DNA of 32,000 nt from Moraxella nasovis (GTDB taxonomy: Bacteria; Pseudomonadota; Gammaproteobacteria; Pseudomonadales; Moraxellaceae), in NCBI RefSeq assembly GCF_022701215.1, contig NZ_CP089976.1, positions 1,290,001-1,322,000 on the forward strand, in the 5' to 3' direction. The notes beneath the pieces were generated by a model. It did no database searches and had not been told where the DNA came from. It saw only the letters and a list, made by a program, of their open reading frames with translations. The translations under genes were made by a program, and so were the position numbers. Shown here one piece after another: positions 2,989-32,000 of the stretch; positions within the stretch are counted from its first letter, which is position 1, and each line of letters begins with the position of its first letter.

Positions 2989-3360
2989 ATGTCACTAACT
3001 AACGAACAAATCTTAGACGCAATCGCGGAAAAATCAGTAATGGAAATCGTTGAGCTTATCTCTGCGATGGAAGAAAAATTCGGTGTATCTGCAGCAGCAC
3101 TAGCAGCAGCCCCAGCAGCTGGCGGTGAAGCAGCAGCAGCTGAAGAGAAAGACGAATTTGACGTAGTTCTAACCAGTGCTGGCGACAAGAAAGTTGCAGT
3201 AATTAAAGTTGTGCGTGAAGTAACTGGTCTAGGTCTAAAAGAAGCCAAAGACCTAGTTGAAGGTGCTCCACAAACTGTTAAAGAAGCTGCATCAAAAGCT
3301 GAAGCTGAAGAGCTTAAGAAAAAGCTTGAAGAAGCTGGCGCAGGCGTTGAGCTTAAATAA
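2989..3360 (+). CDS. rplL: 50S ribosomal protein L7/L12
   Basis: 123 aa. Ala/Glu-rich hinge and the conserved C-terminal domain '[30 protein letters not shown]'. Confidence 0.97.
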
Positions 3361-17022: not shown

Positions 17023-17265
17023 ATCTTGCCTTATGCATTTGATGAATGATTTGTGTTAAGTTTAGTGTAATATTATGCCATGAATTTGATGTTTGTAACA
17101 GTAGGCTTTAGCATTTGCAAAGAATTTTACGTTAAAAACCTGCAAAATCCATACCCTCCTGACCACCTATTCCAGTCTAAAATGGACACCAATTCCAATT
17201 TAAAATGACCAGTCATTCCGGTGAATGCTGGTCATTTTAGCTGAGTCTCGATGATTATTGTAGTG

Positions 17266-18006
17266 TTAATTTATTGTGTGCGCTAATTTCTTCCGCATAG
17301 ATTCGCCTGCCAGTGCAAGCGGGTATGCTCGGTGAATGATGCGATCAAGCACAGCGTCAGCAATGGTTGCTTCAGGAAATAGTCCATGCCAAGCTGCGAC
17401 AGGGTATTGGCTAGTAATCAGCAAACCGCCAACGCTGGATTGCTTATCAATAATATCAAGCAACACAGGACATATCTGCGGTAGTAATTCACCAATGCCA
17501 AAGTCATCAATGATTAACAAATCCACCTTGCAGTATTTTTGCTTAACCTTGGCGATACTGCCATCGGCTATTGATAAGATAATATCTTCGTATAAATCAG
17601 CAGCTTGAACAAACATCACTTTTCTTAAGTTGCGACAAGCGTAATTGCCGAGCGCACAAGCCAGCCAAGTCTTACCAGTTCCTGTCGCACCCGTAATAAT
17701 GACACTTCGATGCCTATCTATCCATTCGCATTCTAAAACTGGCGAGAGACTGTCTGGACTGAGACGCCTACTATTATAATCTATATCTTCAACTCTAGCT
17801 TTGCTATAGCGAAACTTGGCGTTTTTAATCAATTTATTGATGTGATTATTGTGCCGACCATTGATTTCATGTTCAAGCATACCTTCAATCAGCTTTGTTG
17901 TGCTTATCTGTGGATTGCTTGGTGCCAGATAATGCACCTCATAATAGTTGGCAGCATGGCTAAGTTTTAGTTGTTTGAGTTTTAGGATAATGGTATTAAT
18001 TGTCAT
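17266..18006 (-). CDS. istB: IS21-family helper ATPase IstB
   Basis: I call the start at the ATG at 18006 ('MTINTIILKLKQLKL'), preceded by AGGAG (18014-18018), 10 bp after the istA stop. Walker A 'GATGTGKTW', Walker B 'LLIIDDFG'. The longer ORF-track version (to 18102) overlaps istA and I reject it. Confidence 0.9.
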   Translation of the reverse strand: MTINTIILKLKQLKLSHAANYYEVHYLAPSNPQISTTKLIEGMLEHEINGRHNNHINKLIKNAKFRYSKARVEDIDYNSRRLSPDSLSPVLECEWIDRHRSVIITGATGTGKTWLACALGNYACRNLRKVMFVQAADLYEDIILSIADGSIAKVKQKYCKVDLLIIDDFGIGELLPQICPVLLDIIDKQSSVGGLLITSQYPVAAWHGLFPEATIADAVLDRIIHRAYPLALAGESMRKKLAHTIN

Positions 18007-18016
18007 GTTTAATCTC

Positions 18017-19609
18017 CTAGCTTGCAATTTGGTTGATTTCATTGGCGTAATAATTTGAGCCACGAATGTTTTCGTGCGGTTGGTTTGAGGTGAATACAAC
18101 ATCCAAATCTTCCATGCTTGGCATGATTAGATGCTCTGTCTTTTGGTAAATTTTATTTTTAAATACCGAAATGATGCGGTCAACTGCACAGATATTGAGT
18201 CTTTGCGCATAGTCAAAACCTTGCTCTATCTGCATATTCGGCACTTTATGCTCAAGCAAATATCGCTTTAACTGATTGAGCTTTTTAAGATTATTGGCAT
18301 AGCCGGATTTGTTTTGCATAATCTTTTGAACCATATGAGCGGTTTGTTTGCCAATATTTTGTGCCCAAGCCAGTAATTTATCTGGCTGCATTTCATCTTG
18401 CAGCTGATGATTTCTTGGCATATGCTCATGTAAAATGCTATTACCTGTGGTAATGTGTTGATGTTCAGCGATGAGTTCGCGGTGTAGATACACCAATACT
18501 TTGTTATCTGTGAGTTTGACATCTACACGCTGACCTATAAACTGATATGGGACAGAATAGCTGGCATGTTCTAAAGTAATCATATAAAACTCGGTAACTT
18601 TAAGATTATAGAACCATTGGCATATTTCATACGCCTTGGCAGGCAACGGATTTAAAAACTGCTCATCAGTCTTGCTAAAACAAACATATCGACTCTCTGG
18701 GTAGCGTTTTGTTGTTTTGGTATTTAATTTGCAAAGCTCTTGTGAGAGTGTATGGTTTAGTTCATCCAAACTAAAAAACCGATGATTTCTTAATTTAGCC
18801 AAAATACCCATCTGAACAATTCGCACCGCCAGTTCTGCCATTGATTTGTCTTTTGGCTTGCGAGGTCGTGAGGGTGTAATAATAATGTCATAGTGATCTG
18901 CAAGTTCGCTATATGAGGGATTGATTTGAATATCTGTTGAATTGTGGCTAATCACTGCAGATTTTAAGTTGTCTGTGACCAGCTTGAGTGGCACACCACC
19001 AAAATACTCAAACATACGGATATGGCATAGCTGCCAGTCTTGTGCCTTTTGAGATGAGACGGCGGTACAATAGATATACCCAGATGCAGGCAGTATGGCA
19101 ACAAAAATCTCAGCTTCAACAATTACTGTGCCTGTGCGCTCATTATAAATAGGCACTTTGCGACCACAGAAGTCCACTTGCACCATTTCGCCAGCCTTAT
19201 AGATCTGTCGCTTACTCGGGCGGGAGGTTTTCTTGTATTTACGATATTGTTCACAAAACTGTGAATAGCCAATGCCGTCAGGATGTGTCTCCCTGAACTC
19301 TTGCCAAAGCAATTCAAGTGTCATGTCAGGGCGCGACATCTCTTTATCAATGTATGCCCAATCAGGATGTGTTTTGATGGATTTGATTTTGTGTGGGTTA
19401 TATACCTTGACCAAGCCCAAAAGCCTTCGCATTTCAACATCGTTTGTTGCTAGTATTTCATCAATACCAAGCATGCAGTTTTGATTGAGCTTGCGTATTT
19501 TGGCGACTGTGGTGGGTGAGATGCTTAGATGGCGAGCGATGGCTCGGTTGCTTACGCCCTGATCGATTTGCTTTAGTGCAGCACGGATGGTTTTATTATC
19601 TATGTTCAT
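18017..19609 (-). CDS. istA: IS21-family transposase IstA
   Basis: 530 aa. N-terminal HTH ('GVSNRAIARHLSISPTTVAKI') followed by a DDE integrase-like core ('QVDF...', 'LVTDNLKSAV'). Classical partner of IstB. Confidence 0.9.
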   Translation of the reverse strand: MNIDNKTIRAALKQIDQGVSNRAIARHLSISPTTVAKIRKLNQNCMLGIDEILATNDVEMRRLLGLVKVYNPHKIKSIKTHPDWAYIDKEMSRPDMTLELLWQEFRETHPDGIGYSQFCEQYRKYKKTSRPSKRQIYKAGEMVQVDFCGRKVPIYNERTGTVIVEAEIFVAILPASGYIYCTAVSSQKAQDWQLCHIRMFEYFGGVPLKLVTDNLKSAVISHNSTDIQINPSYSELADHYDIIITPSRPRKPKDKSMAELAVRIVQMGILAKLRNHRFFSLDELNHTLSQELCKLNTKTTKRYPESRYVCFSKTDEQFLNPLPAKAYEICQWFYNLKVTEFYMITLEHASYSVPYQFIGQRVDVKLTDNKVLVYLHRELIAEHQHITTGNSILHEHMPRNHQLQDEMQPDKLLAWAQNIGKQTAHMVQKIMQNKSGYANNLKKLNQLKRYLLEHKVPNMQIEQGFDYAQRLNICAVDRIISVFKNKIYQKTEHLIMPSMEDLDVVFTSNQPHENIRGSNYYANEINQIAS

Positions 19610-19854
19610 GAGAAATCCTCAATATATTTTATAATTAAAATTCTTTTTTGAGGATTGCAAAGCCCTATAGCACTTGACAAATCAAGTACCAGCAGGGATA
19701 ATAAGATGTCGGGTTTGGTTAACGACATCTTTATCGAAGCACTATCAATTGGCGTTGATAGTGCTTTTTCATTGCAATCGTATTATTATTGGCATCTGTA
19801 TTAGCTAAGGCCAGTGCATTATCCACTCCTTAATATTGTTTTAGTTGGTAAAAT

Positions 19855-19886
19855 CAGTAAAAAAGACACGCAAAAAAGCGTGTCTT
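19855..19886 (-). terminator. Rho-independent terminator of the 70-aa RHH gene
   Basis: Perfect 9-bp stem aagacacgc/gcgtgtctt with a 6-nt loop. On the - strand it is followed by TTTTTTACTG. It lies 4 bp after the stop of ORF 19890..20102. Confidence 0.7.
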
Positions 19887-19889
19887 GGT

Positions 19890-20102
19890 TTATAAAGACA
19901 AGTGTTGTATTGATGCACCCAGCTGGGTGTCACAAACTGTTTTTGTGGTCTCGCGACGTTTTTTCTCTTCATTGATAAGTTTGGAGATAAAGCCTGAGAG
20001 CGACTGAAAATCCTGTGACGCTTGCTGTCTAGCCCATTCTTTAAGATCGTTGGGTAGTTTCACATTGGTTTGAGAAATATGATTTCTGTGTTGAGCAGGC
20101 AT
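19890..20102 (-). CDS. Small ribbon-helix-helix (Arc/CopG-like) DNA-binding protein
   Basis: 70 aa. 'TNVKLPNDLKEWARQQASQDFQSLSGFISKLINEE' fits the RHH pattern (beta strand, helix, helix). It has its own terminator and is divergent from a second RHH gene. Confidence 0.55.
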   Translation of the reverse strand: MPAQHRNHISQTNVKLPNDLKEWARQQASQDFQSLSGFISKLINEEKKRRETTKTVCDTQLGASIQHLSL

Positions 20103-20179
20103 TTTACACCATCCTTATAAAATAAAATTAAGTTTAGCATTAAAATAATCACAAATAAATTTAAAGCCAAATACTTTAT

Positions 20180-20302
20180 GTACCATTATATACTATTATA
20201 AATGTTAAATATACCATATTATACCAAATAATCGACCAAAAAGTGCACAATGTATCCCTTGCCAATTAAAAAACCCATGATTTTTCTATATAATACCGAA
20301 TA
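20180..20302. promoter_or_regulatory. Divergent promoter/operator region with four (A/G)TACC(A/G)WAT repeats
   Basis: GTACCATTAT (20180), ATACCATATT (20211), ATACCAAATA (20221) and ATACCGAATA (20293). The last abuts/overlaps a TATAAT at 20289-20294, 44 bp upstream of the 20338 ATG. Short repeats near helical phase are typical of RHH operators. Confidence 0.35.
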
Positions 20303-20337
20303 ACAACCAAATCGCATTACCCACGGAGTTACTCATT

Positions 20338-21297
20338 ATGGCTGGAGATATCCAAGTTAATTTGCGCATCCCGCCTGACCTTAAACAAAAGCTGCTGGAG
20401 CAAGCACAGTTTCATGGTCGTTCTTTAAATCTTGAAATGAACTATCGCTTGGTCAACTCATTCTCCACACCCAATGACAGCTATGCAGACATCATGCAAA
20501 AGCTAGATGAGATTGTTGCTCGCCATCATAAAACCAGGCGATTGAGTGCGGTTCAAGAACGATTAAACACAGCCTTATTTGAATTGAGCAAGGTGCCAAT
20601 GGTACGACAGCTATCGCCTGCGCGTATCGCTTATGATTTGGGTTATGAAAGAGCTGATGAAGTGATTCGTTGGTTTGATGGTGATCTTGAGCCAACTTTT
20701 ATACAGCTTAAACAACTGGCGGACTATCTAGGATGTGATGCCGAATGGCTAATGTTTGATGAAAAACAGCCTTATCCAATCAAAAACCAAGACATGAGCC
20801 GTTTTGATACCGTCCAGTCTATTGTGGAGTTTTGTTTTGAGCCGGAAGCGGGGTTTGATGCAGTTCAAAAGGTATTTTTTATTCGAAATGACAGTACTGC
20901 TGGTGATGTATTGATCATCAAGCAGTTTAGTCACAAGCATGCCCAGGTGTACACTACCAATATTCATCTTAGCAATGTGGTTGGTGCTACAGGTGCTAGA
21001 ATACAAGCTTTGTTTGTGTTGGCACTCAAAGATATTTGTAAACACGGTGAGTATAAACACCAAACCATGAGCTACTTATTTGACGCAGCTGTCTGTGAAC
21101 AGCTAAAACAAGGTATAGAGCATCCACTTAAGCTGACTGCACGAGCAGCCTTTACTCCCTGGATGGATGACATCTGGGATCGGTACATGTATGAAAAACA
21201 AGATGCAAATTACTACTGGCACGGCTATCGGGATGTCTGCTTTAGAGTGCAGGCATATATCAATGAAGATCCCAAGCTAAGAGACATGTATCCCTAA
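20338..21297 (+). CDS. Arc-type RHH + XRE-type HTH + unknown C-terminal domain protein
   Basis: 319 aa. Residues ~5-42, 'IQVNLRIPPDLKQKLLEQAQFHGRSLNLEMNYRLVNSF', match the Arc-like RHH pattern. Residues ~90-142, 'LSPARIAYDLGYERADEVIRWFDGDLEPTFIQLKQLADYLGCDAEWLMFDE', match the Cro/C1 HTH pattern. I do not recognise the remaining ~175 aa. GGAG RBS. Confidence 0.6.
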   Translation: MAGDIQVNLRIPPDLKQKLLEQAQFHGRSLNLEMNYRLVNSFSTPNDSYADIMQKLDEIVARHHKTRRLSAVQERLNTALFELSKVPMVRQLSPARIAYDLGYERADEVIRWFDGDLEPTFIQLKQLADYLGCDAEWLMFDEKQPYPIKNQDMSRFDTVQSIVEFCFEPEAGFDAVQKVFFIRNDSTAGDVLIIKQFSHKHAQVYTTNIHLSNVVGATGARIQALFVLALKDICKHGEYKHQTMSYLFDAAVCEQLKQGIEHPLKLTARAAFTPWMDDIWDRYMYEKQDANYYWHGYRDVCFRVQAYINEDPKLRDMYP

Positions 21298-21320
21298 ACC
21301 GCTTGATCAAGAATAAAAAA

Positions 21321-21342
21321 CCACCATCAAAAAAGATGGTGG
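21321..21342 (-). terminator. Hairpin that looks like a minus-strand terminator
   Basis: Perfect 8-bp stem ccaccatc/gatggtgg with loop aaaaaa. A T run follows only on the - strand (TTTTTTATTC). On the + strand it is followed by CGGGG. Confidence 0.4.
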
Positions 21343-21491
21343 CGGGGTTGGGATTGGTTGGGTAGGTTTATGTCTTAGCACAAACTACAGACCCTTGCTT
21401 TGCTGGTGCATGGGTGTGACATGTGCTTTATGCTGACACATATGAGTATGTCTGTCATCGGCTATTGCATTAACTAGAATGTGGATATCCA

Positions 21492-21704
21492 TCAGGGGTA
21501 ATGAGAGTTTGAAGTGGGTAGGGGTGCAATACGCCAGTGAAATGGTTTAGATTGGTGGTGCGCTGTGCACACCCTACTGTACTGATGGGCGATCTGTTCA
21601 GGGGTATTGGCATAAGCTGAACAGCATAAAGTCAAAGAGACGGCTAGTGCCAATCGTGTTGGTAAGGATGCAATGCTGTAAGATGCGTGGTTGGTGTGAG
21701 TCAT
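21492..21704 (-). CDS. Hypothetical small exported protein (weak call)
   Basis: 70 aa with a signal-peptide-like segment 'LPTRLALAVSLTLCCSAYA'. No recognisable family and no strong RBS. Confidence 0.25.
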   Translation of the reverse strand: MTHTNHASYSIASLPTRLALAVSLTLCCSAYANTPEQIAHQYSRVCTAHHQSKPFHWRIAPLPTSNSHYP

Positions 21705-21771
21705 GGCGTATCTCTTTTTTGGGTTTGGAGGTAGGGTTAGCCTTTAAGGGTTTAGCAAATCAAAATCAAAC

Positions 21772-21830
21772 AATTCAATGGGTTATGCCATAAATGCTGG
21801 GTTACGCTGTCGCTAACCCAGCCTACGGGC
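21772..21830. repeat. Cassette-junction element, copy 3 (downstream of cdiI-3)
   Basis: AATTCAATGG-N10-AAATGCTGGGTTACGCTGTCGCTAACCCAGCCTACGGGC. It contains a perfect 9-bp inverted repeat GCTGGGTTA/TAACCCAGC. It lies 30 bp beyond the cdiI-3 stop. Confidence 0.8.
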
Positions 21831-21860
21831 TTCTCAGGTTGCGATTGGAAAATAATATAT

Positions 21861-22553
21861 TCAATGACTTGCACCACTATCACTAGCCTGGTCGATTGGA
21901 CTAAATATATTTTTCACGCCATAGTTCTCCATATGCAATATTATATCAATAATCAAATCTCTATCAATGTTGATCTTGTTAAAATTTAACCATTGTAATT
22001 CTATTTTGGAAAAATCTATATGCTTATAATAACCCCCTGAAATAATATCAAAAAACCCATCTAAATCAGAACCCAGATAACCACCAACCCCCAAAAAGGC
22101 CTCACTTAATGAACATAAAAAATCCCATTGATTATTTATATATTGACAATCTACAACAATACTCTTTTGGAGTGGAATATCTTTATTCAAGGAATAAAGA
22201 TAGGAAAATCTGAGCCATTTTTGCTTATATGCATTAGACATGTATACCCAATGGAGTTTGTTAATATTACTATTAATAATGTTTTTTATCCAGAGTATCT
22301 CAAGCCAAGTGAACTCATCTTGGAAACTATAATCGGTAATATAAAAGCAATTATTATTAAAATAATAATCATAAATAAATAGTGAGAAATAACTAACACT
22401 ACCAACGATTTCAAGTTTATAAAAATCACTGTTTAAGTAATCAATATTAACTGTAGTTTTTTCAATTTCTATTAATAGTGTGTTGCCATTAATTTGTATG
22501 TTTCTGATAGGAGTTTTAAATTCAGATTTATTACTAAGTAATTTTAAGTACAT
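21861..22553 (-). CDS. cdiI: Orphan CdiI-3 immunity protein with C-terminal barstar-like domain
   Basis: 230 aa, starting 2 nt after the CT3 stop. 'GYLGSDLDGFFDIISG' aligns with the barstar signature 'YYGENLDALWDCLTG' (Y29, D35 and D39 equivalents conserved). I do not recognise the first ~135 aa. Very AT-rich. Confidence 0.7.
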   Translation of the reverse strand: MYLKLLSNKSEFKTPIRNIQINGNTLLIEIEKTTVNIDYLNSDFYKLEIVGSVSYFSLFIYDYYFNNNCFYITDYSFQDEFTWLEILWIKNIINSNINKLHWVYMSNAYKQKWLRFSYLYSLNKDIPLQKSIVVDCQYINNQWDFLCSLSEAFLGVGGYLGSDLDGFFDIISGGYYKHIDFSKIELQWLNFNKINIDRDLIIDIILHMENYGVKNIFSPIDQASDSGASH

Positions 22554-22555
22554 AT

Positions 22556-23637
22556 CTATCTCACTGGTTTGGTCAACACTCCACCATCAGGATACCAAGG
22601 AGCAGGGAAAGGTCGTATATTATTGTAGTTATGATCAATAACATATCCCATCCTTCCATTGGGCATTTTTAATATTCTATGATGCCTACCCTCAGAGTTT
22701 GGAACCAACCATTCAGTTGCACCTTTCCAATTTGGATTCTCCCTTCCTTGATAAATTTTTTGTATGCCATTTCTATCAAGATTAGGAGTTCCTTTACCAG
22801 ATATCACATCCTCATATGCAGACCTTAAACCTTTTATATGAATCGGGTTTGGTGATGATAATTTTGGAGAGCTTGCATTATTTGATTTCGCAGTTGTAGC
22901 GTGCCCAGTGGTTTTAACACTTGCGTGATTACCACCCCTAACCGACTGTCTCGAAACCGCATTATAAGCTTCTACAGCAGAACCTGCAATTTGATGACCT
23001 GCAACAGTTACAGCAGCCATTGCTCCATGAGTATAAGTAATAAGCGAGCTTTCCAATTGATATAAATACTCAGGAGTACCCGCATATTCAATCATATACC
23101 GATATTTTTGAGATCTCAAATGATTACGACAGGCATTATCTTTACACTGGCGATTATAATGCTCAATAATTTTTGTAACGCCTTTTTCCCACTCGGCTAT
23201 TTCTTGAGAAGTCATGCCAGCATGTTCATAGCTGATATATTTCCATTGATGTATGATTGAATTACAAGCCGCAGAAGGTTCAGGGGAGCAAAATTTAGTG
23301 TATTGTAGGTGAAAGCTTTCTATGTCAACAGGTTTTAATAAAGCATTATTCTCCACCGCCTCCCCGGCACTGCCTACTGCCGTATCCACATCAAACCCAT
23401 ACAGCAGAGCTACAGAGCCTGCGGTGAGGCGGGCGGTGTTTAGGATTTTGTTGTATTCATCAGATCCTGGGCTGATTTCTCCTGAGTTGATTTTATCTTG
23501 GATGTCATCATCAATCATCCAATCACCCACCATCTCACCGATGATAGCACCGACAGCCGCCGCCTCGCAAGACTGGTCTTTGGCTTTGGCGGAGAGGCAG
23601 CCTGTTAAGCCTGCGGCAAGTTTGTGAGAGAGGTTGT
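22556..23637 (-). CDS. cdiA: Orphan cdiA-CT fragment 3: pre-toxin/VENN stub + barnase-like RNase toxin
   Basis: The frame is open from just after a TAG at ~23638-23640 and there is no credible start. 'HKLAAGLTGCLSAKAKDQSCEAAAVGAIIGEMVGDWM' is shared with the main cdiA. VENN is at 23345-23356. The C-terminus 'ATEWLVPNSEGRHHRILKMPNGRMGYVIDHNY' aligns with barnase E73, R83, R87 and D101-H102. Confidence 0.8.
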
Positions 23638-23661
23638 TGGTATTTACCTAAGAAACTAGCA

Positions 23662-23719
23662 AATTCAAAGATTGGCGATAAAAATGCTAGGTTTCACTTC
23701 CTCAACTCAGCCTACGAGC
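23662..23719. repeat. Cassette-junction element, copy 2 (diverged; downstream of cdiI-2)
   Basis: AATTCAAAGA-N9-AAATGCTAGGTTTCACTTCCTCAACTCAGCCTACGAGC. It is colinear with copies 1 and 3, but the inverted repeat is degraded. It lies 18 bp beyond the cdiI-2 stop. Confidence 0.65.
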
Positions 23720-23737
23720 TATTTTGTCTTGGTTGAT

Positions 23738-24058
23738 TTAGTAAAAAATCTCTCTAATTCTGTCTACTTCAACATCTTGACGATAGATGTCTAAAATGAT
23801 ATTTTTTTGATCTTCTGTATAAAATTTTTCATTGGTATTTGCTTGATTTTTTAATGCAAACAATATATTTAAAATTTCATAATCAAAAGAATGCATATTT
23901 ATTATGTAAGGCACATACAATTTTAAAATATCGAATGACTGTTGAGGATTTAATATTTTTATGTTTTTATCTATAAAGTCACACAAATACCACTCATCAA
24001 CAATATTGTTATTTTTAACATCTTTTAGCAAATTATCAAGATTTTTGAAAAAACTCAT
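23738..24058 (-). CDS. cdiI: Orphan CdiI-2 immunity protein (family not recognised)
   Basis: 106-aa soluble protein with no TM segments. It starts 4 nt after the CT2 stop and is very AT-rich. The call rests on position. Confidence 0.6.
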   Translation of the reverse strand: MSFFKNLDNLLKDVKNNNIVDEWYLCDFIDKNIKILNPQQSFDILKLYVPYIINMHSFDYEILNILFALKNQANTNEKFYTEDQKNIILDIYRQDVEVDRIREIFY

Positions 24059-24062
24059 ATTC

Positions 24063-26915
24063 TTAATCCTTAAACTTAAAATCTATTTTTAGACCAGTAT
24101 TAACATTTTCGACGTAATGTATTTCTACACCATTAACATTCTGGGCTTTTTTGACCCATCCATCTTTGGCATATAAACCATTTTTTGCGTCTGACATTTT
24201 GATAGGTAACTTTCTACCCTTTGGATTGCCCCTCACCTCCTCCATTGCTAATTGCTCAGTCAAATTTCTAGGCGTAGTTCTTCCTGTTGATATTAAAGAG
24301 TAGTCAATCATTTTGACTTGAGATGTTGGTTTTCCTACCTCTATATCTCCAACTTTGCTAGATGTTTTTGGCAAAATTCTATTAACTTTAGTGATTTTTC
24401 CAACGGGTATAATTTCAACAACATGGGTTGGAACGACCATCATATTGATGGCATATACAACAGCTGCGACTGATTTGCGCACCTTTTGCATTTCAGTATC
24501 AGTGGCTTGATTTGCCCAGGTTGCTAAAGAATTATCAAGATTATCCAAATATCTTTGAGTAAGTTCTATATTGCCTTTACTGTACGCATCTTGCATTAAC
24601 TCCAGCAGGTTTCGTTCTTGCGGTCTAATATCTACACTACTCTTTGCTTTTTCAAACTCTCTGACTAGCTCTCCAATCTCTCCTGGTGCTAGACCCACAA
24701 TGCTATTATTCTCCACCGCCACCCCAGCTTCATTCGCTGCGGTATCCACATCAAAATCATAGAGTAGGGCGAAGCTGCCTGCGGCAAGTTTGGCGGTGTT
24801 TAGGATTTTATTATAATCTGGTGTGCCTGGGCTGATGTCTCCTGAGTTGATTTTAGCTTGGATGTCATCATCAATCATCCAATCACCCACCATTTCACCG
24901 ATGATAGCACCGATGGCGGCAGATTCGCAAGATTCGTCTTTTGCTTTGGCGGAGAGGCAGCCTGTTAAGCCTGCGGCAAGTTTATGAGCGACATTAGTGA
25001 TAAACTCTGTATCATTGAAGTCCAGTGGTTTAACACCATGAGTATAAATACCAGCTGCTGCGGCATCCACCAGTTGATTGGTCAGATGTCTTTTTAGGGA
25101 CTCTTCTAGGCTTTCGCCATAGATTAAGCTATCCGTCAGAGCATGACCTGCACCTTGTACAAAGGCACGAGTGAATTTATCACCGATGGTGGCAGTGGTC
25201 GAGGTATCTACTTGCAGAGTCTGAGCTAAGAATTTGTCCAGACTGGCAGTTGCCCCAGCTGTCAGCACGGCTCTTGCCATGTTTTTGGCAGTTTGTGATT
25301 TACCTAGGTCTTTGAGTGTTTTATTGACATCGCCTTTGTTATTGACTAGGGTGGTACCTGCTTGGGTGACTAAGGAGGTGAAGGCAGCATTTGCCATTGC
25401 TGCTGTCGCAGAACCTGCTGTGACAGATACGCCCATCGAGCTTAGCACAGACACACCGCCACCAGCCGTTGCCATCGATAAAGCAATCGCCAGTAGCGCT
25501 GCTCCTGCTGGGGAGAGTCCTTCTTGTTTGTAATCCCATTCTTCCTGGGCAAGTCTGATGGCGGTGAAATCCACATCATCACGCTGGATGATGTCACTTA
25601 GGTAGTCAAAGCCTGGGTTGTGGCTTAGTCGTGTCAGGACATTGACCAGATGATCTTTATCGGCTAGGTCATCTTTGTTGATGGGTACTTGTACAGCCAG
25701 ACCGCCTGTGGCATTGAGAGTGGGGGTAACGCCAATGAATGAGGGTAGCTTGGCATCTTCATTGATATAACCCGACTCTGAAATGGACTGCCAGACTAGG
25801 TTTTCAAATTGGCGAGATTGACTGACGCTGACGGTTGTGCTGATGGTGTCTAGGATGATCCTAGCATCAGCCACTGCTTTATCACCCACACCCGCCGTGA
25901 CGCTCGCCCCTTGTAGATTGGCAAAGCGAGTGCCTTGTAGCTGGGTATTGCCTCCTGACTCACTTTGACTATAGTTAGCAATCAGGCTGGTTGGCAGCTC
26001 GCTGATGATTTGCTTGCTGTCTTTGGTATTGACTTTTCTATATTTGATGCCAGCAAAGCTAGAAGTCGTTTTAGACTCCACTTCTTTGACATCCACTTCC
26101 TGTACAGCATAAAGACCCAAAGCTTCGCCAGCCTTAAGCTGAATTTGACCTGCTGGTGCATTAAATTCAGTAGCATAGGCATATAGATTATCATTCGCCT
26201 GCACTGAGATGGCATTGGCGTTTAGCTTGACTGCCTCGCTATCGGCGATTTGCTCTGTGGTAGTTGTGACAGTAATTTTCTTTTTGGCACCACCCCAGCT
26301 TTTTTTCTTGAAAGTGTTGGTTTCTCTATCATAGATACTGTCTTGACCAGCTTGTAGAATGGTACTGCCAGCACTTTGGATGGTAATGCCAGCATCGCCT
26401 GCTTGATAAGTGCCGCCTATCAGTAAGATGTTACTGTCTGATGCTGGCTGTGCCGAAACAGTGCCTGCTTGGGGATTGCTAATGGCTTGGATGACAATAC
26501 CATCTTTGGCCGTGATGGTGCTTGGCTGATAATTTTTATGCAATGCATAAGCATCATCTTCAAATTCACCACGCTCATAGACATCGTGCAAACCCTCAAT
26601 GCTAATAGCAATATCGATGTTTTGGACAGGTGGTATTTGTGACAATAACCGCTTAAACCCCGTCAATTTATCAGTGTCACCACCTAAGGCGGCTGCATAG
26701 GTGCTTTTGAGCTTGGCTTTATGCTCGTCAAGTTTGGTATCGCTATCAAAAGCAGCCTCATCAAAGACAAGCTTGTCAATGATGGCGTTGGCTGTTTGTG
26801 TATCTGTATTGTCAGTTTTCTTGCCAAGTAGCGGAAAAGGCATTGAAGCCACCGCCAGCCGTAATGTTAGCCGCTTTAAATCAAAAAGCAACAAAAAGCA
26901 GTGGAAAATCCACAA
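24063..26915 (-). CDS. cdiA: 5'-truncated orphan cdiA copy (duplicated cdiA body + PT-VENN + CT2 toxin)
   Basis: 950-aa ORF. Residues from 'PLLGKKTDNTD' to 'LSAKAKD' are identical to the main CdiA. VENN is at 24705-24716. CT2 (213 aa) differs from CT1 and CT3. The first 26 codons (26837-26915, TTG 'start', no RBS) are unrelated sequence. There is no signal or TPS domain, so it cannot be an independent secreted CdiA. Confidence 0.85.
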   Translation of the reverse strand: MWIFHCFLLLFDLKRLTLRLAVASMPFPLLGKKTDNTDTQTANAIIDKLVFDEAAFDSDTKLDEHKAKLKSTYAAALGGDTDKLTGFKRLLSQIPPVQNIDIAISIEGLHDVYERGEFEDDAYALHKNYQPSTITAKDGIVIQAISNPQAGTVSAQPASDSNILLIGGTYQAGDAGITIQSAGSTILQAGQDSIYDRETNTFKKKSWGGAKKKITVTTTTEQIADSEAVKLNANAISVQANDNLYAYATEFNAPAGQIQLKAGEALGLYAVQEVDVKEVESKTTSSFAGIKYRKVNTKDSKQIISELPTSLIANYSQSESGGNTQLQGTRFANLQGASVTAGVGDKAVADARIILDTISTTVSVSQSRQFENLVWQSISESGYINEDAKLPSFIGVTPTLNATGGLAVQVPINKDDLADKDHLVNVLTRLSHNPGFDYLSDIIQRDDVDFTAIRLAQEEWDYKQEGLSPAGAALLAIALSMATAGGGVSVLSSMGVSVTAGSATAAMANAAFTSLVTQAGTTLVNNKGDVNKTLKDLGKSQTAKNMARAVLTAGATASLDKFLAQTLQVDTSTTATIGDKFTRAFVQGAGHALTDSLIYGESLEESLKRHLTNQLVDAAAAGIYTHGVKPLDFNDTEFITNVAHKLAAGLTGCLSAKAKDESCESAAIGAIIGEMVGDWMIDDDIQAKINSGDISPGTPDYNKILNTAKLAAGSFALLYDFDVDTAANEAGVAVENNSIVGLAPGEIGELVREFEKAKSSVDIRPQERNLLELMQDAYSKGNIELTQRYLDNLDNSLATWANQATDTEMQKVRKSVAAVVYAINMMVVPTHVVEIIPVGKITKVNRILPKTSSKVGDIEVGKPTSQVKMIDYSLISTGRTTPRNLTEQLAMEEVRGNPKGRKLPIKMSDAKNGLYAKDGWVKKAQNVNGVEIHYVENVNTGLKIDFKFKD
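24943..26836. repeat. 1.9-kb direct repeat, copy A
   Basis: Matches 29049-30942 at a constant offset of 4106 bp. Every line I compared is identical except 25032 (A) versus 29138 (G). Confidence 0.9.
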
Positions 26916-27099
26916 GGGTAGCCGTGATGGTAAGCCCTACAAGCCAAAGCCACCAACACCCAAGTCTAAAGCACAGCTTGAGAACATGAACAAAGAAACC
27001 ATGAAAGCGTATGAGCAATACGCCAAAAAACTGCCAGCTGGTACGGTCAAAAATGCCGTTAAAGAACTGGTTAATCACAACCAAGATAAGGGGCGATGA
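26836..27099 (+). pseudogene. 3' remnant of an unidentified + strand gene (Lys/Pro-rich C-terminus)
   Basis: Protein-like translation on the + strand, 'GIEATASRNVSRFKSKSNKKQWKIHKGSRDGKPYKPKPPTPKSKAQLENMNKETMKAYEQYAKKLPAGTVKNAVKELVNHNQDKGR*'. It begins exactly at the repeat breakpoint. The upstream part of ORF 26701..27099 is merely antisense to cdiA. Confidence 0.3.
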
Positions 27100-27171
27100 T
27101 GAGGTAGTCATCCTGTGAGGGCGGTAGCAAGATTGCAATAGAGATCGTTAGGCTTTCTTGAAATACCTGAA

Positions 27172-27228
27172 AATTCAATAGTTATCTCAAAATGCTGGGT
27201 TACGCTATCGCTAACCCAGCCTATGGGC
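27172..27228. repeat. Cassette-junction element, copy 1 (downstream of cdiI-1)
   Basis: AATTCAATAG-N7-AAAATGCTGGGTTACGCTATCGCTAACCCAGCCTATGGGC, with the same 9-bp inverted repeat as copy 3. It ends 2 nt from the cdiI-1 stop codon. Confidence 0.8.
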
Positions 27229-27230
27229 TA

Positions 27231-27971
27231 TTATGCAAACAATATAAACAATACAAATATAACACACCCACAAATAAACAATAATAATTTTATATATTTT
27301 CTGAGCACAGGATGTACAAAATTATTATTTTTACCTTTTATATTATTTTTATAAAACAAAAACATCAACATTGCCAATATGTATGATGCAAAGTTTAATA
27401 AGTATTGATACCTACTTTGATGAGTGGCTTTAAGTTCTATATTTAGATAATCAAGTGTATATTCCAAGATGAACAAGAGGGTTATTGCGACAAAACAGTA
27501 AAAAATTCTTTTACAATCATTTAAATATTTTCCCAAGTAGCCTACAAAAAATGGGAAAAGTACAATCGGTATTAAAGAATGAAACAAATTGCCTACAATA
27601 AAACCTCTAGAAAATTCATAGAATTGCTTGCCATGTGATAGGTCATAAAAAATAAATTTTCTAGAGAAAAAAAGTATCGTCAAAAATAATATAAAAACTA
27701 GATTGAGTTTTATTTGAATAATAAAATCAATTGTAATTGCAGAACATACAAATACCAAAAAGAAACCAAGAAATATCAAAGCATATCGATGCTCTTCAAA
27801 ATAGCTTGGAAAAATAACAATATTGATAACAAAGATTAGCCATGAAAATAAAAATACAATGGCTGTGCTGACAAAATATCCGCCAAAATCTTTTGAACAA
27901 TGTAGCAGTTTATTGCCCAAATGAGACAATTTGGTATCTAAAACTTCTCCATCTCTCGTACTCATCGGCAT
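27231..27971 (-). CDS. cdiI: CdiI-1: polytopic (~7 TM) membrane immunity protein
   Basis: 246 aa. The ATG at 27971 overlaps the cdiA stop by 10 nt (ATGCCGATGA; a second ATG forms an ATGA overlap). I read about seven hydrophobic helices by eye. Extremely AT-rich. The call rests on position and coupling. Confidence 0.65.
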   Translation of the reverse strand: MPMSTRDGEVLDTKLSHLGNKLLHCSKDFGGYFVSTAIVFLFSWLIFVINIVIFPSYFEEHRYALIFLGFFLVFVCSAITIDFIIQIKLNLVFILFLTILFFSRKFIFYDLSHGKQFYEFSRGFIVGNLFHSLIPIVLFPFFVGYLGKYLNDCKRIFYCFVAITLLFILEYTLDYLNIELKATHQSRYQYLLNFASYILAMLMFLFYKNNIKGKNNNFVHPVLRKYIKLLLFICGCVIFVLFILFA

Positions 27972-30900
27972 ACCCCATTGATATAACTATAGCCCATCAT
28001 TGAACAACCATAGCGTATCCTGTCTTGTAGATTTAGCATATCCACTTTGCCAGATCCAGTTCCTATCAGACTGGGTGGCAATGTAAATATTACTGAGCCA
28101 CCAATATGTTTCTCGTGTATAGGTTGTAGTATTGTTTGTTCTTGAACTAAGCGGTTAATATCCCATTGTCTATAATTGGTTACTTTGCCATCCCATAGCT
28201 TTTTAAAATCATTATATCCATCAGCCATCAATGCTTGCCCAGCCTCTCGTCGCCAGTCAGTCCCGCTGGTACGCCAAGAAAAAGAGGAGCCTGTTAAAAA
28301 TGTGATATTTGAATGCAAGGGAATTGTTCCAAAAATATAACACCCTGAAGCACCTAAGCCAGTTAAACATCTTCTTGATACATCGCTAGCACCAGCAAAC
28401 CATCTAGTTTGCGGAAAATGTTTTGACATAACATCAAAAAAATCAGCTCTGCTTTCTATAGTGTTGATATTATTGAACACATTTTGATTGCTAAATATTT
28501 GTTGTAAAACCACATTTCTGCTTCTTATCATGTCGTTACTTAGATTGTTTTTTATTATTTCATTGTTATAAGTCTCACTTATCAATGACTTTAAAGGAGA
28601 AGAATCCCCATTATAATTTAATGACAATCTAATTAAATTAGCACATGCACTACCATTGGCATTTAATGAGCACTCTTTGATCATAAGATCATCATATTTT
28701 TGGGAATGCTTAATATATTGATTAACAATAGATTGTTCACAACTACTATTGCTCTTGCATTTCTTAAACTTATCAACAAAATCCGACAATAAACTTTCAG
28801 ACAGAGCATTCCACCTCGCCGCCACCCCAGCTTCATTTGCTGCGGTATCCACATCAAAGTCATACAGTAGGGCGAAGCCACCTGCGGCAAGTTTTGCGGT
28901 GTTTAGGATTTTTTGTTTATCTTCATCACTTAGGATAAGGGCTTTTTCACCATCAGGTAGGGTAACTTCATGTTTATTAGTCATCCAATCACCCACCATC
29001 TCGCCTATGATAGCACCGACAGCCGCCGCCTCGCAAGACTGGTCTTTGGCTTTGGCGGAGAGGCAGCCTGTTAAGCCTGCGGCAAGTTTATGAGCGACAT
29101 TAGTGATAAACTCTGTATCATTGAAGTCCAGTGGTTTGACACCATGAGTATAAATACCAGCTGCTGCGGCATCCACCAGTTGATTGGTCAGATGTCTTTT
29201 TAGGGACTCTTCTAGGCTTTCGCCATAGATTAAGCTATCCGTCAGAGCATGACCTGCACCTTGTACAAAGGCACGAGTGAATTTATCACCGATGGTGGCA
29301 GTGGTCGAGGTATCTACTTGCAGAGTCTGAGCTAAGAATTTGTCCAGACTGGCAGTTGCCCCAGCTGTCAGCACGGCTCTTGCCATGTTTTTGGCAGTTT
29401 GTGATTTACCTAGGTCTTTGAGTGTTTTATTGACATCGCCTTTGTTATTGACTAGGGTGGTACCTGCTTGGGTGACTAAGGAGGTGAAGGCAGCATTTGC
29501 CATTGCTGCTGTCGCAGAACCTGCTGTGACAGATACGCCCATCGAGCTTAGCACAGACACACCGCCACCAGCCGTTGCCATCGATAAAGCAATCGCCAGT
29601 AGCGCTGCTCCTGCTGGGGAGAGTCCTTCTTGTTTGTAATCCCATTCTTCCTGGGCAAGTCTGATGGCGGTGAAATCCACATCATCACGCTGGATGATGT
29701 CACTTAGGTAGTCAAAGCCTGGGTTGTGGCTTAGTCGTGTCAGGACATTGACCAGATGATCTTTATCGGCTAGGTCATCTTTGTTGATGGGTACTTGTAC
29801 AGCCAGACCGCCTGTGGCATTGAGAGTGGGGGTAACGCCAATGAATGAGGGTAGCTTGGCATCTTCATTGATATAACCCGACTCTGAAATGGACTGCCAG
29901 ACTAGGTTTTCAAATTGGCGAGATTGACTGACGCTGACGGTTGTGCTGATGGTGTCTAGGATGATCCTAGCATCAGCCACTGCTTTATCACCCACACCCG
30001 CCGTGACGCTCGCCCCTTGTAGATTGGCAAAGCGAGTGCCTTGTAGCTGGGTATTGCCTCCTGACTCACTTTGACTATAGTTAGCAATCAGGCTGGTTGG
30101 CAGCTCGCTGATGATTTGCTTGCTGTCTTTGGTATTGACTTTTCTATATTTGATGCCAGCAAAGCTAGAAGTCGTTTTAGACTCCACTTCTTTGACATCC
30201 ACTTCCTGTACAGCATAAAGACCCAAAGCTTCGCCAGCCTTAAGCTGAATTTGACCTGCTGGTGCATTAAATTCAGTAGCATAGGCATATAGATTATCAT
30301 TCGCCTGCACTGAGATGGCATTGGCGTTTAGCTTGACTGCCTCGCTATCGGCGATTTGCTCTGTGGTAGTTGTGACAGTAATTTTCTTTTTGGCACCACC
30401 CCAGCTTTTTTTCTTGAAAGTGTTGGTTTCTCTATCATAGATACTGTCTTGACCAGCTTGTAGAATGGTACTGCCAGCACTTTGGATGGTAATGCCAGCA
30501 TCGCCTGCTTGATAAGTGCCGCCTATCAGTAAGATGTTACTGTCTGATGCTGGCTGTGCCGAAACAGTGCCTGCTTGGGGATTGCTAATGGCTTGGATGA
30601 CAATACCATCTTTGGCCGTGATGGTGCTTGGCTGATAATTTTTATGCAATGCATAAGCATCATCTTCAAATTCACCACGCTCATAGACATCGTGCAAACC
30701 CTCAATGCTAATAGCAATATCGATGTTTTGGACAGGTGGTATTTGTGACAATAACCGCTTAAACCCCGTCAATTTATCAGTGTCACCACCTAAGGCGGCT
30801 GCATAGGTGCTTTTGAGCTTGGCTTTATGCTCGTCAAGTTTGGTATCGCTATCAAAAGCAGCCTCATCAAAGACAAGCTTGTCAATGATGGCGTTGGCTG

Positions 30901-32000
30901 TTTGTGTATCTGTATTGTCAGTTTTCTTGCCAAGTAGCGGAAGAAATAGGGCGGTGCGACTTGCCTCATCGATCACTTGCCGTGTTTGCCCTTGGGAGCC
31001 AAGGGCTGCCATCTGTACTTTGCCATTATCCGCTTGTAAATTTGCCATTTGCACAGCAATACCACCAGCACTGATTAGGCGAATGTCGCCATCGCTAGTG
31101 GTAAGGCTTGCCCCTGCATTTTCTACACCTGTAAATTCGGTATTGGCAATCTTAAGAGATTTATTAAGCTTGGTAATTTCTTGAGCCAGTTCATCAGGCT
31201 TGAATTTGATATTCAGCTCTTGACGGCGAACCAGTTCGTCTTGTATGCTCTTAGCAAGCTGCTGATTCAGCGCTTCTTTTTGCTCTTCATAGTCAGCGAC
31301 AGGGCTTTGTGCATTTTTATCTTCCAAATCACCCAGTTTGTCAGTTGCCTCTTTGTGACTTGCCAATGCCTGTTGATAGACCATATCACGATTTAGTGTG
31401 TCAATTTGATTTTGAAGTGTTTCGATCTCACCCTCAAGTAATTTAATACGGTCATCATCTTTAATGCCTGATACCGAATTGCTAATAGCACCAATATATA
31501 GATTGCCTTGGGTCGCAGTGGCTTTAATACCACTACCAGCTTGAATTTGACTGCCGCCAATATCAACACCAGCACCCTTAAGATGCACCACACCCTCAGT
31601 GGTGATGGTTACTTTGCTTTCAGTCCCGCGTCCTTTATCACCTGATTGTGATGCTAAAGTTAAACCACCCTGACTTGCAAGCTCTACACCGCCAATGGCA
31701 GTAATGGTTTTGCCTGCCTCGACTGTGATGTCATCATGGCTTTTAATGGCAAGCACACCATTGGCTGCTGCTAATTGTGGATTATGAGCAAGAACATCAC
31801 TTTTATGAGTGGTTAAAGTAGCATTTTGCCAATCTACACCGCCTGCCTGACTGTGTAGAGCAATGCTGCCAGCTTGTAGCGTGCTTGTGCCAAGACGAAC
31901 ATCCTGATTGGCATAGACAGAAGCTAAGCCTTGTGCCTTGATGTCAGCATCTTCGAGTATGACCTGATTTTCACGACTGCTGATGGCAAGGTGTGTATTT
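27962..32000 (-). CDS. cdiA: CdiA contact-dependent inhibition exoprotein (3' part; 5' end off window) carrying CT1
   Basis: I translated the frame by hand and it stays open from 31757 to 32000, so the GTG at 31756 is internal. It has FHA-type Gly-rich beta-helix repeats, then the body shared with orphan 2, then the pre-toxin region 'GAIIGEMVGDWM...DFDVDTAANEAGVA'. A degenerate ARWN sits at 28808-28819 where VENN is expected. A 281-aa CT follows. Confidence 0.9.
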   Translation of the reverse strand, partial: NTHLAISSRENQVILEDADIKAQGLASVYANQDVRLGTSTLQAGSIALHSQAGGVDWQNATLTTHKSDVLAHNPQLAAANGVLAIKSHDDITVEAGKTITAIGGVELASQGGLTLASQSGDKGRGTESKVTITTEGVVHLKGAGVDIGGSQIQAGSGIKATATQGNLYIGAISNSVSGIKDDDRIKLLEGEIETLQNQIDTLNRDMVYQQALASHKEATDKLGDLEDKNAQSPVADYEEQKEALNQQLAKSIQDELVRRQELNIKFKPDELAQEITKLNKSLKIANTEFTGVENAGASLTTSDGDIRLISAGGIAVQMANLQADNGKVQMAALGSQGQTRQVIDEASRTALFLPLLGKKTDNTDTQTANAIIDKLVFDEAAFDSDTKLDEHKAKLKSTYAAALGGDTDKLTGFKRLLSQIPPVQNIDIAISIEGLHDVYERGEFEDDAYALHKNYQPSTITAKDGIVIQAISNPQAGTVSAQPASDSNILLIGGTYQAGDAGITIQSAGSTILQAGQDSIYDRETNTFKKKSWGGAKKKITVTTTTEQIADSEAVKLNANAISVQANDNLYAYATEFNAPAGQIQLKAGEALGLYAVQEVDVKEVESKTTSSFAGIKYRKVNTKDSKQIISELPTSLIANYSQSESGGNTQLQGTRFANLQGASVTAGVGDKAVADARIILDTISTTVSVSQSRQFENLVWQSISESGYINEDAKLPSFIGVTPTLNATGGLAVQVPINKDDLADKDHLVNVLTRLSHNPGFDYLSDIIQRDDVDFTAIRLAQEEWDYKQEGLSPAGAALLAIALSMATAGGGVSVLSSMGVSVTAGSATAAMANAAFTSLVTQAGTTLVNNKGDVNKTLKDLGKSQTAKNMARAVLTAGATASLDKFLAQTLQVDTSTTATIGDKFTRAFVQGAGHALTDSLIYGESLEESLKRHLTNQLVDAAAAGIYTHGVKPLDFNDTEFITNVAHKLAAGLTGCLSAKAKDQSCEAAAVGAIIGEMVGDWMTNKHEVTLPDGEKALILSDEDKQKILNTAKLAAGGFALLYDFDVDTAANEAGVAARWNALSESLLSDFVDKFKKCKSNSSCEQSIVNQYIKHSQKYDDLMIKECSLNANGSACANLIRLSLNYNGDSSPLKSLISETYNNEIIKNNLSNDMIRSRNVVLQQIFSNQNVFNNINTIESRADFFDVMSKHFPQTRWFAGASDVSRRCLTGLGASGCYIFGTIPLHSNITFLTGSSFSWRTSGTDWRREAGQALMADGYNDFKKLWDGKVTNYRQWDINRLVQEQTILQPIHEKHIGGSVIFTLPPSLIGTGSGKVDMLNLQDRIRYGCSMMGYSYINGVCR
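29049..30942. repeat. 1.9-kb direct repeat, copy B (inside the expressed cdiA)
   Basis: Partner of 24943-26836. The upstream edge is sharp (30942/30943). Four antisense ORF pairs in the supplied track are identical at offset 4106. Confidence 0.9.

Follow-up and report, generated by a model that had tools for sequence, protein, structure and literature searches.

The three short repeats that follow the immunity genes of the CDI array in the window, the whole 32,000-nt stretch of Moraxella nasovis DNA that was analysed, are copies of a GTAG-headed REP, a miniature selfish element, and not a special cassette-defining signal. We consider it probable that each comprises the left REP and the spacer of a REPIN-like doublet whose right half has decayed, and that it resides at the cassette junctions as a passenger. 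One REPIN subfamily would occupy the very short spacers that follow the cdiI genes in this Moraxella lineage, and would have been copied as well as carried along during the duplication, stacking and swapping of toxin/immunity modules, which would recombine by homology in the pre-toxin part of cdiA, where the sequence is conserved. As such, the element would be a losable passenger at module junctions, unneeded for making them.

Anatomy of the CDI array and of its three repeats

The array lies on the minus strand, and begins with the 3' part of the main cdiA gene (27962-32000; DUF637, PT-VENN and CT1), which exceeds the window and has a full product of 1994 aa, and cdiI1, the putative immunity gene of cassette 1 (27231-27971, minus strand), whose stop is 10 nt ahead of the copy-1 stem. 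These are followed by an inter-cassette backbone (26837-27100), which holds a conserved opposite-strand ORF (26701-27099, plus strand), an orphan cdiA fragment with CT2 (24063-26836, minus strand), of which 24870-26836 and main cdiA positions 28976-30942 are 100% identical, and cdiI2, the putative immunity gene of orphan cassette 2 (23738-24058, minus strand). Orphan cdiA-CT3 (22556-23631, minus strand), where cdiA homology starts from 23631 at the HKLAAGLTGC position, precedes cdiI3 and its 24-nt 3' tail (21837-22553, minus strand; cdiI3, 21861-22553; tail, 21837-21860). ORF domains were scanned with Pfam over 17.3-31.8 kb and with NCBIfam on ORFs selected from 12.4-27.1 kb, and the sole recombinase-type match in the scanned ORFs was to IS21 IstA/IstB. 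By ORF size and order, 1-12.2 kb was assigned to genes for ribosomal proteins and rpoBC, rpoB alone being confirmed.

The first-pass annotation had described three same-orientation copies of a ~57-bp unit 2-30 bp after immunity-gene stops, at 27172-27228 (copy 1), 23662-23719 (copy 2) and 21772-21830 (copy 3). These coordinates and sequences are correct, with copies 1 to 3 lying 2, 18 and 30 nt past the stops of three cdiI genes unrelated to one another and their hairpins 10-38 nt past the stop in the sense orientation; the unit is longer, however, as the profile spans 27142-27236, 23636-23727 and 21723-21838, all on the minus strand. On this coding strand each copy reads (G/A)TAG, GCTGGGTTA, a 9-nt loop, TAACCCAGC and a tail of ~25 nt. 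Copy 1 has an ATAG head (27221-27224), stem arms at 27212-27220 and 27194-27202 around the loop GCGATAGCG (27203-27211), a spacer or tail at 27172-27193, and a decayed distal part that extends to 27142. Copy 3 is built in the same manner from GTAG (21823-21826), arms at 21814-21822 and 21796-21804, the loop GCGACAGCG (21805-21813), a spacer at 21772-21795 and a degenerate right half to ~21723, and copy 2 from GTAG (23712-23715), the arms GCTGAGTT (23704-23711) and AACCTAGC (23686-23693), the loop GAGGAAGTGA (23694-23703) and a spacer to ~23661. The right-hand REP has degenerated in each of the three, so that the window copies are probably immobile relics.

A 39-nt degenerate core matched exactly at 21792-21830 and 27190-27228 and had no match across 100 dinucleotide shuffles, and a repeat search returned copies 1 and 3 as a 40-nt pair of 95% identity. 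Copy 2 differs from the core by more than three mismatches, yet can be aligned along the entire unit (nhmmer E=3e-18); the AATTCAAWRG motif once thought common to all three is shared by copies 1 and 3 only, with copy 2 reading AATTCAAAGA. Folding confirmed the perfect 9-bp inverted repeat proposed for copies 1 and 3 and added two more pairs, while the copy 2 stem contains two non-Watson-Crick positions, a G-U that pairs on the sense strand only and a mismatch. Fold z-scores on the sense strand were modest (-1.5 to -2.2). Copy 2 had been taken for a simply decayed version of the other two, but its loop GAGGAAGTGA resembles GAGGAACGA, a sister REP subtype with a wide distribution elsewhere. No further copy in the window was found by a Hamming scan (up to 11 mismatches in 31), a GTAG-hairpin scan or nhmmer, in agreement with the earlier annotation. 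A second, different GTAG hairpin (GTAG GGTGTGC ACA GCGCACC) is located at 21557-21577 on the minus strand and has a perfect stem in the sister strain L001; a 70-aa ORF (21492-21704) overlaps it.

Relation to GTAG REPs and REPIN/RAYT systems

In related Moraxella the complete form of the element is an inverted, REPIN-like REP doublet, and the AATTCAA tail of the window copies corresponds to the spacer of this doublet. Full doublets are present at 3030-3130, 6836-6936 and 13220-13316 of locus L141 and at 14104-14206 of L151, and include full inverted doublets 3' of two other immunity genes. The copies in L141 lie 7-20 nt past stops, and the one at 13220-13316, in an unrelated convergent intergenic region of this sister strain, carries a compensated stem pair (GTTGGG..CCCAAC). 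Across 20 copies the compensated pair was CG in 10, UA in 9 and UG in 1 and was never broken, and 96.8% of stem cells were paired versus 21-38% with the partner slid. The head is GTAG in copies 2 and 3, L001 and L141c, and ATAG, a first-position variant, in copy 1 and L141a/b.

These repeats are short stem-loop palindromes (20-40 bp) with an unpaired GTAG end, or ATAG in copy 1, and are extragenic just downstream of ORFs; inverted dimers of the REPIN/BIME kind occur in L141, L151 and metagenome contigs, with right halves degenerate in the window. As described in the main text of Di Nocera, De Gregorio & Rocco 2013 (PMC3733652), which makes no mention of Moraxella, the GTAG REP super-family includes the REPs of E. 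coli and Pseudomonas and the SMAGs of Stenotrophomonas, and its members similarly carry an unpaired GTAG ahead of a stem-loop with a stem of 6-13 bp, lie extragenically near ORF 3' ends (mostly <20 bp 3' of the ORF) as singletons or head-to-head dimers, and fall into sub-families distinguished by compensated stem changes. Unlike the members described there, the element occurs at low density in the lineage DNA compared (one non-CDI copy in ~33 kb), has ATAG in copy 1, and is represented in the window by half-decayed doublets clustered at one locus. The core TAGGCTGGGTT-N5-20-AACCCAGC was found in at least 120 genome stretches, often as inverted pairs, and the taxa among the matches listed include cyanobacteria, gamma- and beta-proteobacteria, planctomycetes and others; according to the same main text, GTAG REPs are known from gamma-proteobacteria, cyanobacteria and planctomycetes. 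An exact variant of the core was present in 17 metagenome contigs, mostly as doublets.

Miniature elements of this kind are recognised by REP-associated tyrosine transposases (RAYTs) in the form of single-stranded, GTAG-headed hairpins. At four loci (L053, L069, L075 and L133) RAYT genes have the same core directly beside them, in a REP-RAYT-REP arrangement at L075 and as the exact core variant at L133, and the RAYTs at these loci score 157-214 bits on NCBIfam NF047646, for which the cut-off is 80 bits. In this flanking, and in a replicating unit made of two inverted REPs and a spacer, the element resembles known REPIN/RAYT systems (Bertels & Rainey 2011, PMC3116915; Nunvar et al. 2010, PMC2817692), from which it differs in that the source genome has no assigned RAYT, none being found in any Moraxella locus compared. 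The best 120 matches of a RAYT homologue search came from methanotroph-type relatives only; a RayT has been reported from some M. catarrhalis strains (PMC9465073).

The GTAG head with its palindrome, the multi-phylum core, the inverted doublets and the flanking of RAYT genes bear out the REP likeness that had been suggested alongside attC and NIME, neither of which held. Like an integron attC array, imperfect palindromes follow promoterless cassettes in the same orientation; unlike an integron, the locus has no IntI, attI or Pc and no R''/L''-L'/R' organisation with a GTTRRRY core, homologous arrays lack the element, and cassette 5' ends are set by cdiA homology. No integrase or tyrosine recombinase was present among the scanned window ORFs, and the only GTT-containing arm, GTTAGCG, has a C at position 6 that breaks GTTRRRY. 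The NIME/dRS3 and Correia elements between silent tpsA/mafB cassettes of Neisseria are likewise short repeats in the spacers of a polymorphic-toxin array of a naturally competent mucosal bacterium, but differ in sequence and from the GTAG-hairpin architecture seen here; dRS3/NIME (ATTCCC-N8-GGGAAT) had no window match with up to two mismatches. In annotation, these hairpins are best labelled REP/REPIN relics and not terminators, attC-like sites or small genes.

Association with cassette junctions and module exchange

In two arrays of this lineage the element is present at five of six cassette junctions versus one of 16 other gaps (Fisher p=0.0013, which overstates the enrichment because the copies are kin by descent and hence non-independent). 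One further copy was found in ~33 kb of non-CDI DNA of the lineage, suggesting that the genome is probably not REP-dense. The lineage-restricted association with junctions is real, and the enrichment at cassette ends exceeds what random REP scatter predicts. Spacer identity is 64-83% among CDI-linked copies versus 52-57% against the non-CDI copy, a pattern that fits common descent, and these comparisons suggest that the CDI-linked copies are probably one subfamily, propagated as modules shuffle.

Such an association could also arise if the element were a cassette-junction recombination site, a short portable homology arm, join-point or RAYT-cleavable end that stacks and swaps cdiA-CT/cdiI modules in a manner akin to integron attC or REP-mediated duplication join-points. 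Besides its presence after five of six cassette ends, a junction-forming role would predict that homology breakpoints fall near the element, and in two cross-species comparisons they lie at or within ~40 nt of element ends: homology between cassette 3 and M. oculi ends at 21837, the left edge of copy 3, and that of the next module begins ~40 nt beyond the right edge of copy 1. Copy 2, in turn, adjoins the start of orphan-3 cdiA homology (23631). REPs are reportedly located at the join-points of tandem duplications in Salmonella (Shyamala, Schneider & Ames 1990), and the repeats here similarly sit at boundaries of repeated chromosomal units, although the content of these units varies and other species have the same junctions without a REP.

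We regard a recombination site as quite unlikely, as modules are joined without it. M. oculi has a 97% identical CT3/cdiI3 cassette, with homology that stops 24 nt past the stop codon (window 21837), and neither the left REP nor its spacer follows cdiI3 in that species (L150-L154); in M. oculi and four other assemblies the same cassette leads to the next module through a 26-nt spacer only, without the left REP. The backbone at 26837-27100 is 94% identical to 10743-11006 of M. oculi L150, where it comes after cassette 3, again without a REP. M. cuniculi stacks four orphans without the element, using a recurring breakpoint inside cdiA at HK(L/I)AAGLTGC, and the element is absent from the arrays of this species (L142 and L143) and of one other (L149). 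Comparison of the window with L001 revealed three differences in 21580-23390 versus 139 in 17141-21579, so that the recently shared block includes copy 3 and ends ~200 bp past it, at the second GTAG hairpin (21557-21577); the exchange tract therefore passes through the element. Neither an integrase nor a RAYT is encoded among the scanned window ORFs, no attC core is present, and in spacers this short any insertion would appear junctional. By these alignments, the element is separable from the cassettes and can be lost.

The first-pass annotation had suggested that the element could be a signal delimiting exchangeable cassettes, a role that would be contradicted by copies scattered over unrelated intergenic regions or by homologous CDI loci that lack the element. 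Both were largely observed, the former as a generic REP core with a copy in an unrelated intergenic region of the sister strain and the latter in M. cuniculi, L149 and at cdiI3 of M. oculi, leaving a dedicated delimiter unsupported; what stands is that, within the lineage, the element is associated with cassette junctions, five of six of which carry it. A related proposal, which we judge very unlikely, is that a dedicated REPIN subfamily has come to serve the CDI toxin/immunity modules of this lineage as their 3' anchor or join-point. Cassettes would then be stacked and swapped through breaks or short-homology recombination that the hairpin promotes, either itself or through the action of a RAYT. 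Co-option would explain both the recurrence after five of six unrelated immunity genes and the cross-species breakpoints at element edges, and, if true, would tie REPIN/RAYT biology to polymorphic toxin diversification. The present evidence points to a passenger element instead, carried by Moraxella CDI modules that have the HK(L/I)AAGLTGC region of cdiA as their 5' edge and a 3' edge ~24 nt past the cdiI stop, and that are shuffled between Moraxella species.

Possible effects on the cdiA-cdiI transcript

REP hairpins are known to stabilise mRNA and to act as attenuators (PMC3733652). A role of the hairpin in mRNA is plausible, and for a passenger REP near a stop codon its likely effect would be the usual one: the transcribed stem-loop would keep 3' exonucleases off the cdiA-cdiI message that precedes it, and at the end of the cassette it could reduce read-through or translation. 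In line with the earlier reading that the hairpin is no obvious intrinsic terminator, no U-run directly follows it, the tails being AUUUAUGG, AUUUUGAG and AUUUUUAUC, and none of the three copies was called in a terminator scan.

It is unlikely, in our assessment, that the element is a host RNA element under selection specific to the CDI locus. Such an element would keep each expressed cdiI apart from the silent orphan toxin fragment that follows it, by stabilising the 3' end, by being a site of processing or by terminating part of the transcripts. The sense orientation of all window copies 10-38 nt past the stop would suit such a role, as would the G-U pair that copy 2 retains on the sense strand only, but there is no U-tract or terminator call, and no Rfam family was matched even at E<=1. 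The decay of copy 2 and of the two L141 copies, and the lack of the element after the same cdiI3 in M. oculi, indicate that it is dispensable. The hairpins of copies 1 and 3 have stayed intact, with cores 94% identical despite spacers that have drifted to 76%, a conservation that RAYT recognition or recent origin explains equally well.

GTAG-tagged repeats 3' of the cdiI genes

The CDI locus occupies the - strand from ~21.8 kb to the end of the window and comprises, in order, the 3' part of cdiA (DUF637, PT-VENN) followed by cdiI1 (27231-27971), an orphan cdiA fragment with CT2 followed by cdiI2 (23738-24058), and an orphan CT3 followed by cdiI3 (21861-22553). The first-pass annotation had proposed that a hairpin-containing element marks the 3' boundary of all three toxin/immunity cassettes, and its description of the repeats was borne out. 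An exact 39-nt core match was found at 21792-21830 (copy 3) and 27190-27228 (copy 1), with no matches in 100 shuffles, and the third repeat (copy 2, 23662-23719) is diverged yet alignable along the whole unit (nhmmer E=3e-18). The repeats lie 2, 18 and 30 nt 3' of the three cdiI stop codons in the same orientation, and searching across the window revealed no further copy. Copies 1 and 3 form the hairpin with its 9-bp stem, to which folding adds two extra pairs. As had also been noted, the element is no obvious intrinsic terminator: none of the three copies has a U-run and a terminator scan called none at the elements. No Rfam family was matched by the whole window at gathering thresholds or by 21400-27400 at E<=1.

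Read on the coding strand, the repeat unit is (G/A)TAG GCTGGGTTA GCGAYAGCG TAACCCAGC ATTT...ATTGAATT. The GTAG-tagged REP super-family is defined by a palindrome behind a GTAG head; its members mostly lie <20 bp from ORF 3' ends and are frequently found as inverted dimers (PMC3733652). The window repeats likewise have a GTAG-type head and then a palindrome. Of the comparisons offered in the first-pass annotation, the likeness to REPs therefore stands, while a NIME-type (dRS3) element and an integron attC-like boundary were rejected, as the repeats lack the features that define either. A DNA-uptake sequence was also rejected because there are merely 2-3 copies in 32 kb and none in the other gaps.

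In related Moraxella strains, found via CdiA/CdiI relatives, the element takes the full REPIN form of a left REP, a ~25-nt spacer and an inverted right REP. Complete doublets lie 3' of a Barstar-type immunity gene (L141 3030-3130), 3' of a 134-aa immunity gene (L141 6836-6936, with an orthologue at 14104-14206 in strain L151), and in a convergent intergenic region unrelated to CDI (L141 13220-13316), the last with GTTGGG..CCCAAC in place of GCTGGG..CCCAGC. In the window copies the right-hand REP is degenerate, and the AATTCAAWRG motif of the first-pass annotation is the terminal part of the REPIN spacer. The variable stem pair is CG in 10, UA in nine and UG in one of 20 copies and broken in none, a count that is no more than supportive, since the ascertainment of several of these sequences had fixed the pair.

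The REP core outside Moraxella

A search of the genome collection for TAGGCTGGGTT-N5-20-AACCCAGC returned at least 120 stretches, many as inverted pairs, and the exact loop variant occurs on 17 metagenome contigs, for the most part as doublets. The matches listed include cyanobacteria, gamma- and beta-proteobacteria, planctomycetes and others, with one unclassified Moraxellaceae MAG, a Psychrobacter and no named Moraxella species among them. The core is a generic REP of many phyla and is not confined to CDI loci. Among the matches listed, the near-identical REP GTAGGCTGGGTT GAGGAACGA AACCCAGC was seen at loci L003-L122 from cyanobacteria, planctomycetes, Thermoanaerobaculia and many gamma-proteobacteria. 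Copy 2 of the window has the same loop type. Such conservation of one REP between phyla is striking.

In four of the loci examined (L075, L053, L069 and L133) the REP core directly flanks a gene for a REP-associated tyrosine transposase (RAYT) scoring 157-214 bits against NCBIfam NF047646 (cut-off 80 bits); the arrangement in L075 is REP-RAYT-REP, and the REP of L133 is the exact variant. The best 120 matches of a RAYT homologue search were methanotroph-type RAYTs with no Moraxella entry. BLAST of the 71-nt unit against plasmids and phages gave only weak core matches to cyanobacterial plasmids and only chance matches in Erwinia phages, and scans of viral contigs gave five uninformative core matches and no CDI-type spacer. 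Taken together, the three repeats in the window belong to a widespread, RAYT-associated type of GTAG REP/REPIN element that is already known; what is specific to this lineage is that the element resides at CDI cassette ends.

The element and cassette junctions across CDI loci

The expectation that the element bounds cassettes in other strains held within this lineage, where it is tied to the cassettes, following five of six cassette ends versus one of 16 intergenic gaps elsewhere (Fisher p=0.0013, with copies that are not independent); it failed at the CT3/cdiI3 cassette of M. oculi, in the orphan array of M. cuniculi and at a more distant CDI locus (L149), all of which lack the element. Spacer identity is 64-83% among CDI-linked copies and 52-57% against the non-CDI copy, which points to the former being a single subfamily related by descent and therefore not independent events.

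M. oculi shares the CT3/cdiI3 cassette at 97% identity (window 23363-21837, L150 9191-10717), as do four further assemblies. Homology there stops 24 nt past the stop codon, the left REP and REP spacer are absent, and a 26-nt spacer leads directly into the next module (in M. oculi, L150 10743-12963). Window 27100-24881 (orphan 2), the counterpart of this module at 94% identity, here follows cassette 1 and REP copy 1. As 94-97% identical modules stand in a different order in M. oculi, CDI modules are shuffled across species, whether or not the element accompanies them. AAAGGCTAACC is found 3' of copies 1 and 3 and also in M. oculi without a left REP; it may be backbone, which would make M. oculi an empty site, or a REP remnant, which would make it a deletion. 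The similarity of sequence 3' of copy 1 to the cdiA junction was too weak for use.

M. cuniculi has four stacked orphans and no REPs. All four (L142 15990-16110, 18830-18890, 20540-20620 and 22040-22180) and window orphan 3 (23521-23631) start at the same cdiA codon position, HK(L/I)AAGLTGC in the pre-toxin region, and this recurrent 5' breakpoint resembles a genuine boundary of the cassettes more closely than the REP. Homology breakpoints do fall at element edges in two comparisons, as would be expected if the element had a junction-forming role at the cassettes. We disfavour such a role, given how small the spacers are and that these junctions also occur where the element is missing; the element is dispensable for cassette junctions and separable from the cassettes.

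In sister strain L001, CT3 is fused to a full cdiA. Window and L001 differ at three positions in 21580-23390 and at 139 in 17141-21579, and the block recently common to both contains REP copy 3 and extends ~200 bp beyond it. The near-identical block stops exactly at a second GTAG hairpin of another sequence class (window 21557-21577, - strand; L001 10977-10997; GTAG GGTG(T/C)GC ACA GCGCACC), with the first difference at 21569; its stem is perfect in L001 and has one mismatch in the window. This hairpin falls within a probably spurious 70-aa ORF.

Proposed history and genomic setting

We propose that an ancestral REPIN lodged in the short spacer 3' of a cdiI gene and would have spread along as modules were duplicated and exchanged by recombination in the conserved pre-toxin region, the mechanism modelled by Poole et al. 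2011 (PMC3150448). The main cdiA (28976-30942) and the orphan-2 fragment (24870-26836) are 100% identical over 1,967 bp, the outcome of a recent duplication that homologous recombination could readily use to exchange CT1 for CT2. As RNA, REPs are barriers to 3' exonucleases and possible dampers of read-through or translation. By analogy, the stem-loop lying 10-38 nt past the stop would probably be a barrier of this kind and possibly such a damper; a CDI-specific RNA insulator is another possible reading. The hairpins have stayed intact in copies 1 and 3 while the spacers beside them drifted, which fits recognition by a RAYT as well as an RNA role in the host.

A member of the 90% cluster of cdiI3 is called a Barstar-domain protein in M. 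oculi (one source), so CT3 may be a barnase-like RNase; the window cdiI3 protein had no Pfam match. Elsewhere, the + strand carries ORFs fitting, by size and order, ribosomal-protein genes and, after them, rpoB and rpoC (rpoB alone was checked), and downstream of rpoC serA, gor, a uptA-like gene and nagZ. The RpoB protein falls into a cluster of ≥90% identity with those of M. catarrhalis and M. canis, which places the source in Moraxella. An IS21 copy (IstA/IstB, 17266-19609) adjoins the CDI locus and has a counterpart at 12938-15281 in L001. Synteny with L001 is lost after IS21, with nagZ here and an 854-aa ORF there, which suggests IS-mediated rearrangement beside the CDI locus; an L141 ORF of equal length has Plug/TonB-dependent-receptor domains. 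The gene for an Arc-like 319-aa DNA-binding protein (20338-21297, +) may belong to a unit that is mobile or present in several copies; its 136-member 90%-identity cluster is found in M. nonliquefaciens, M. cuniculi and M. caviae, with a single sequence on up to 36 contigs. Where one cassette ends and before the following DUF637-containing orphan begins, a candidate gene at 26701-27099 (+), without a match in Pfam or NCBIfam, runs on the strand opposite the cdi genes; this ORF has a counterpart of 80% amino-acid identity at the equivalent position in M. oculi (L150 10668-11021, -).
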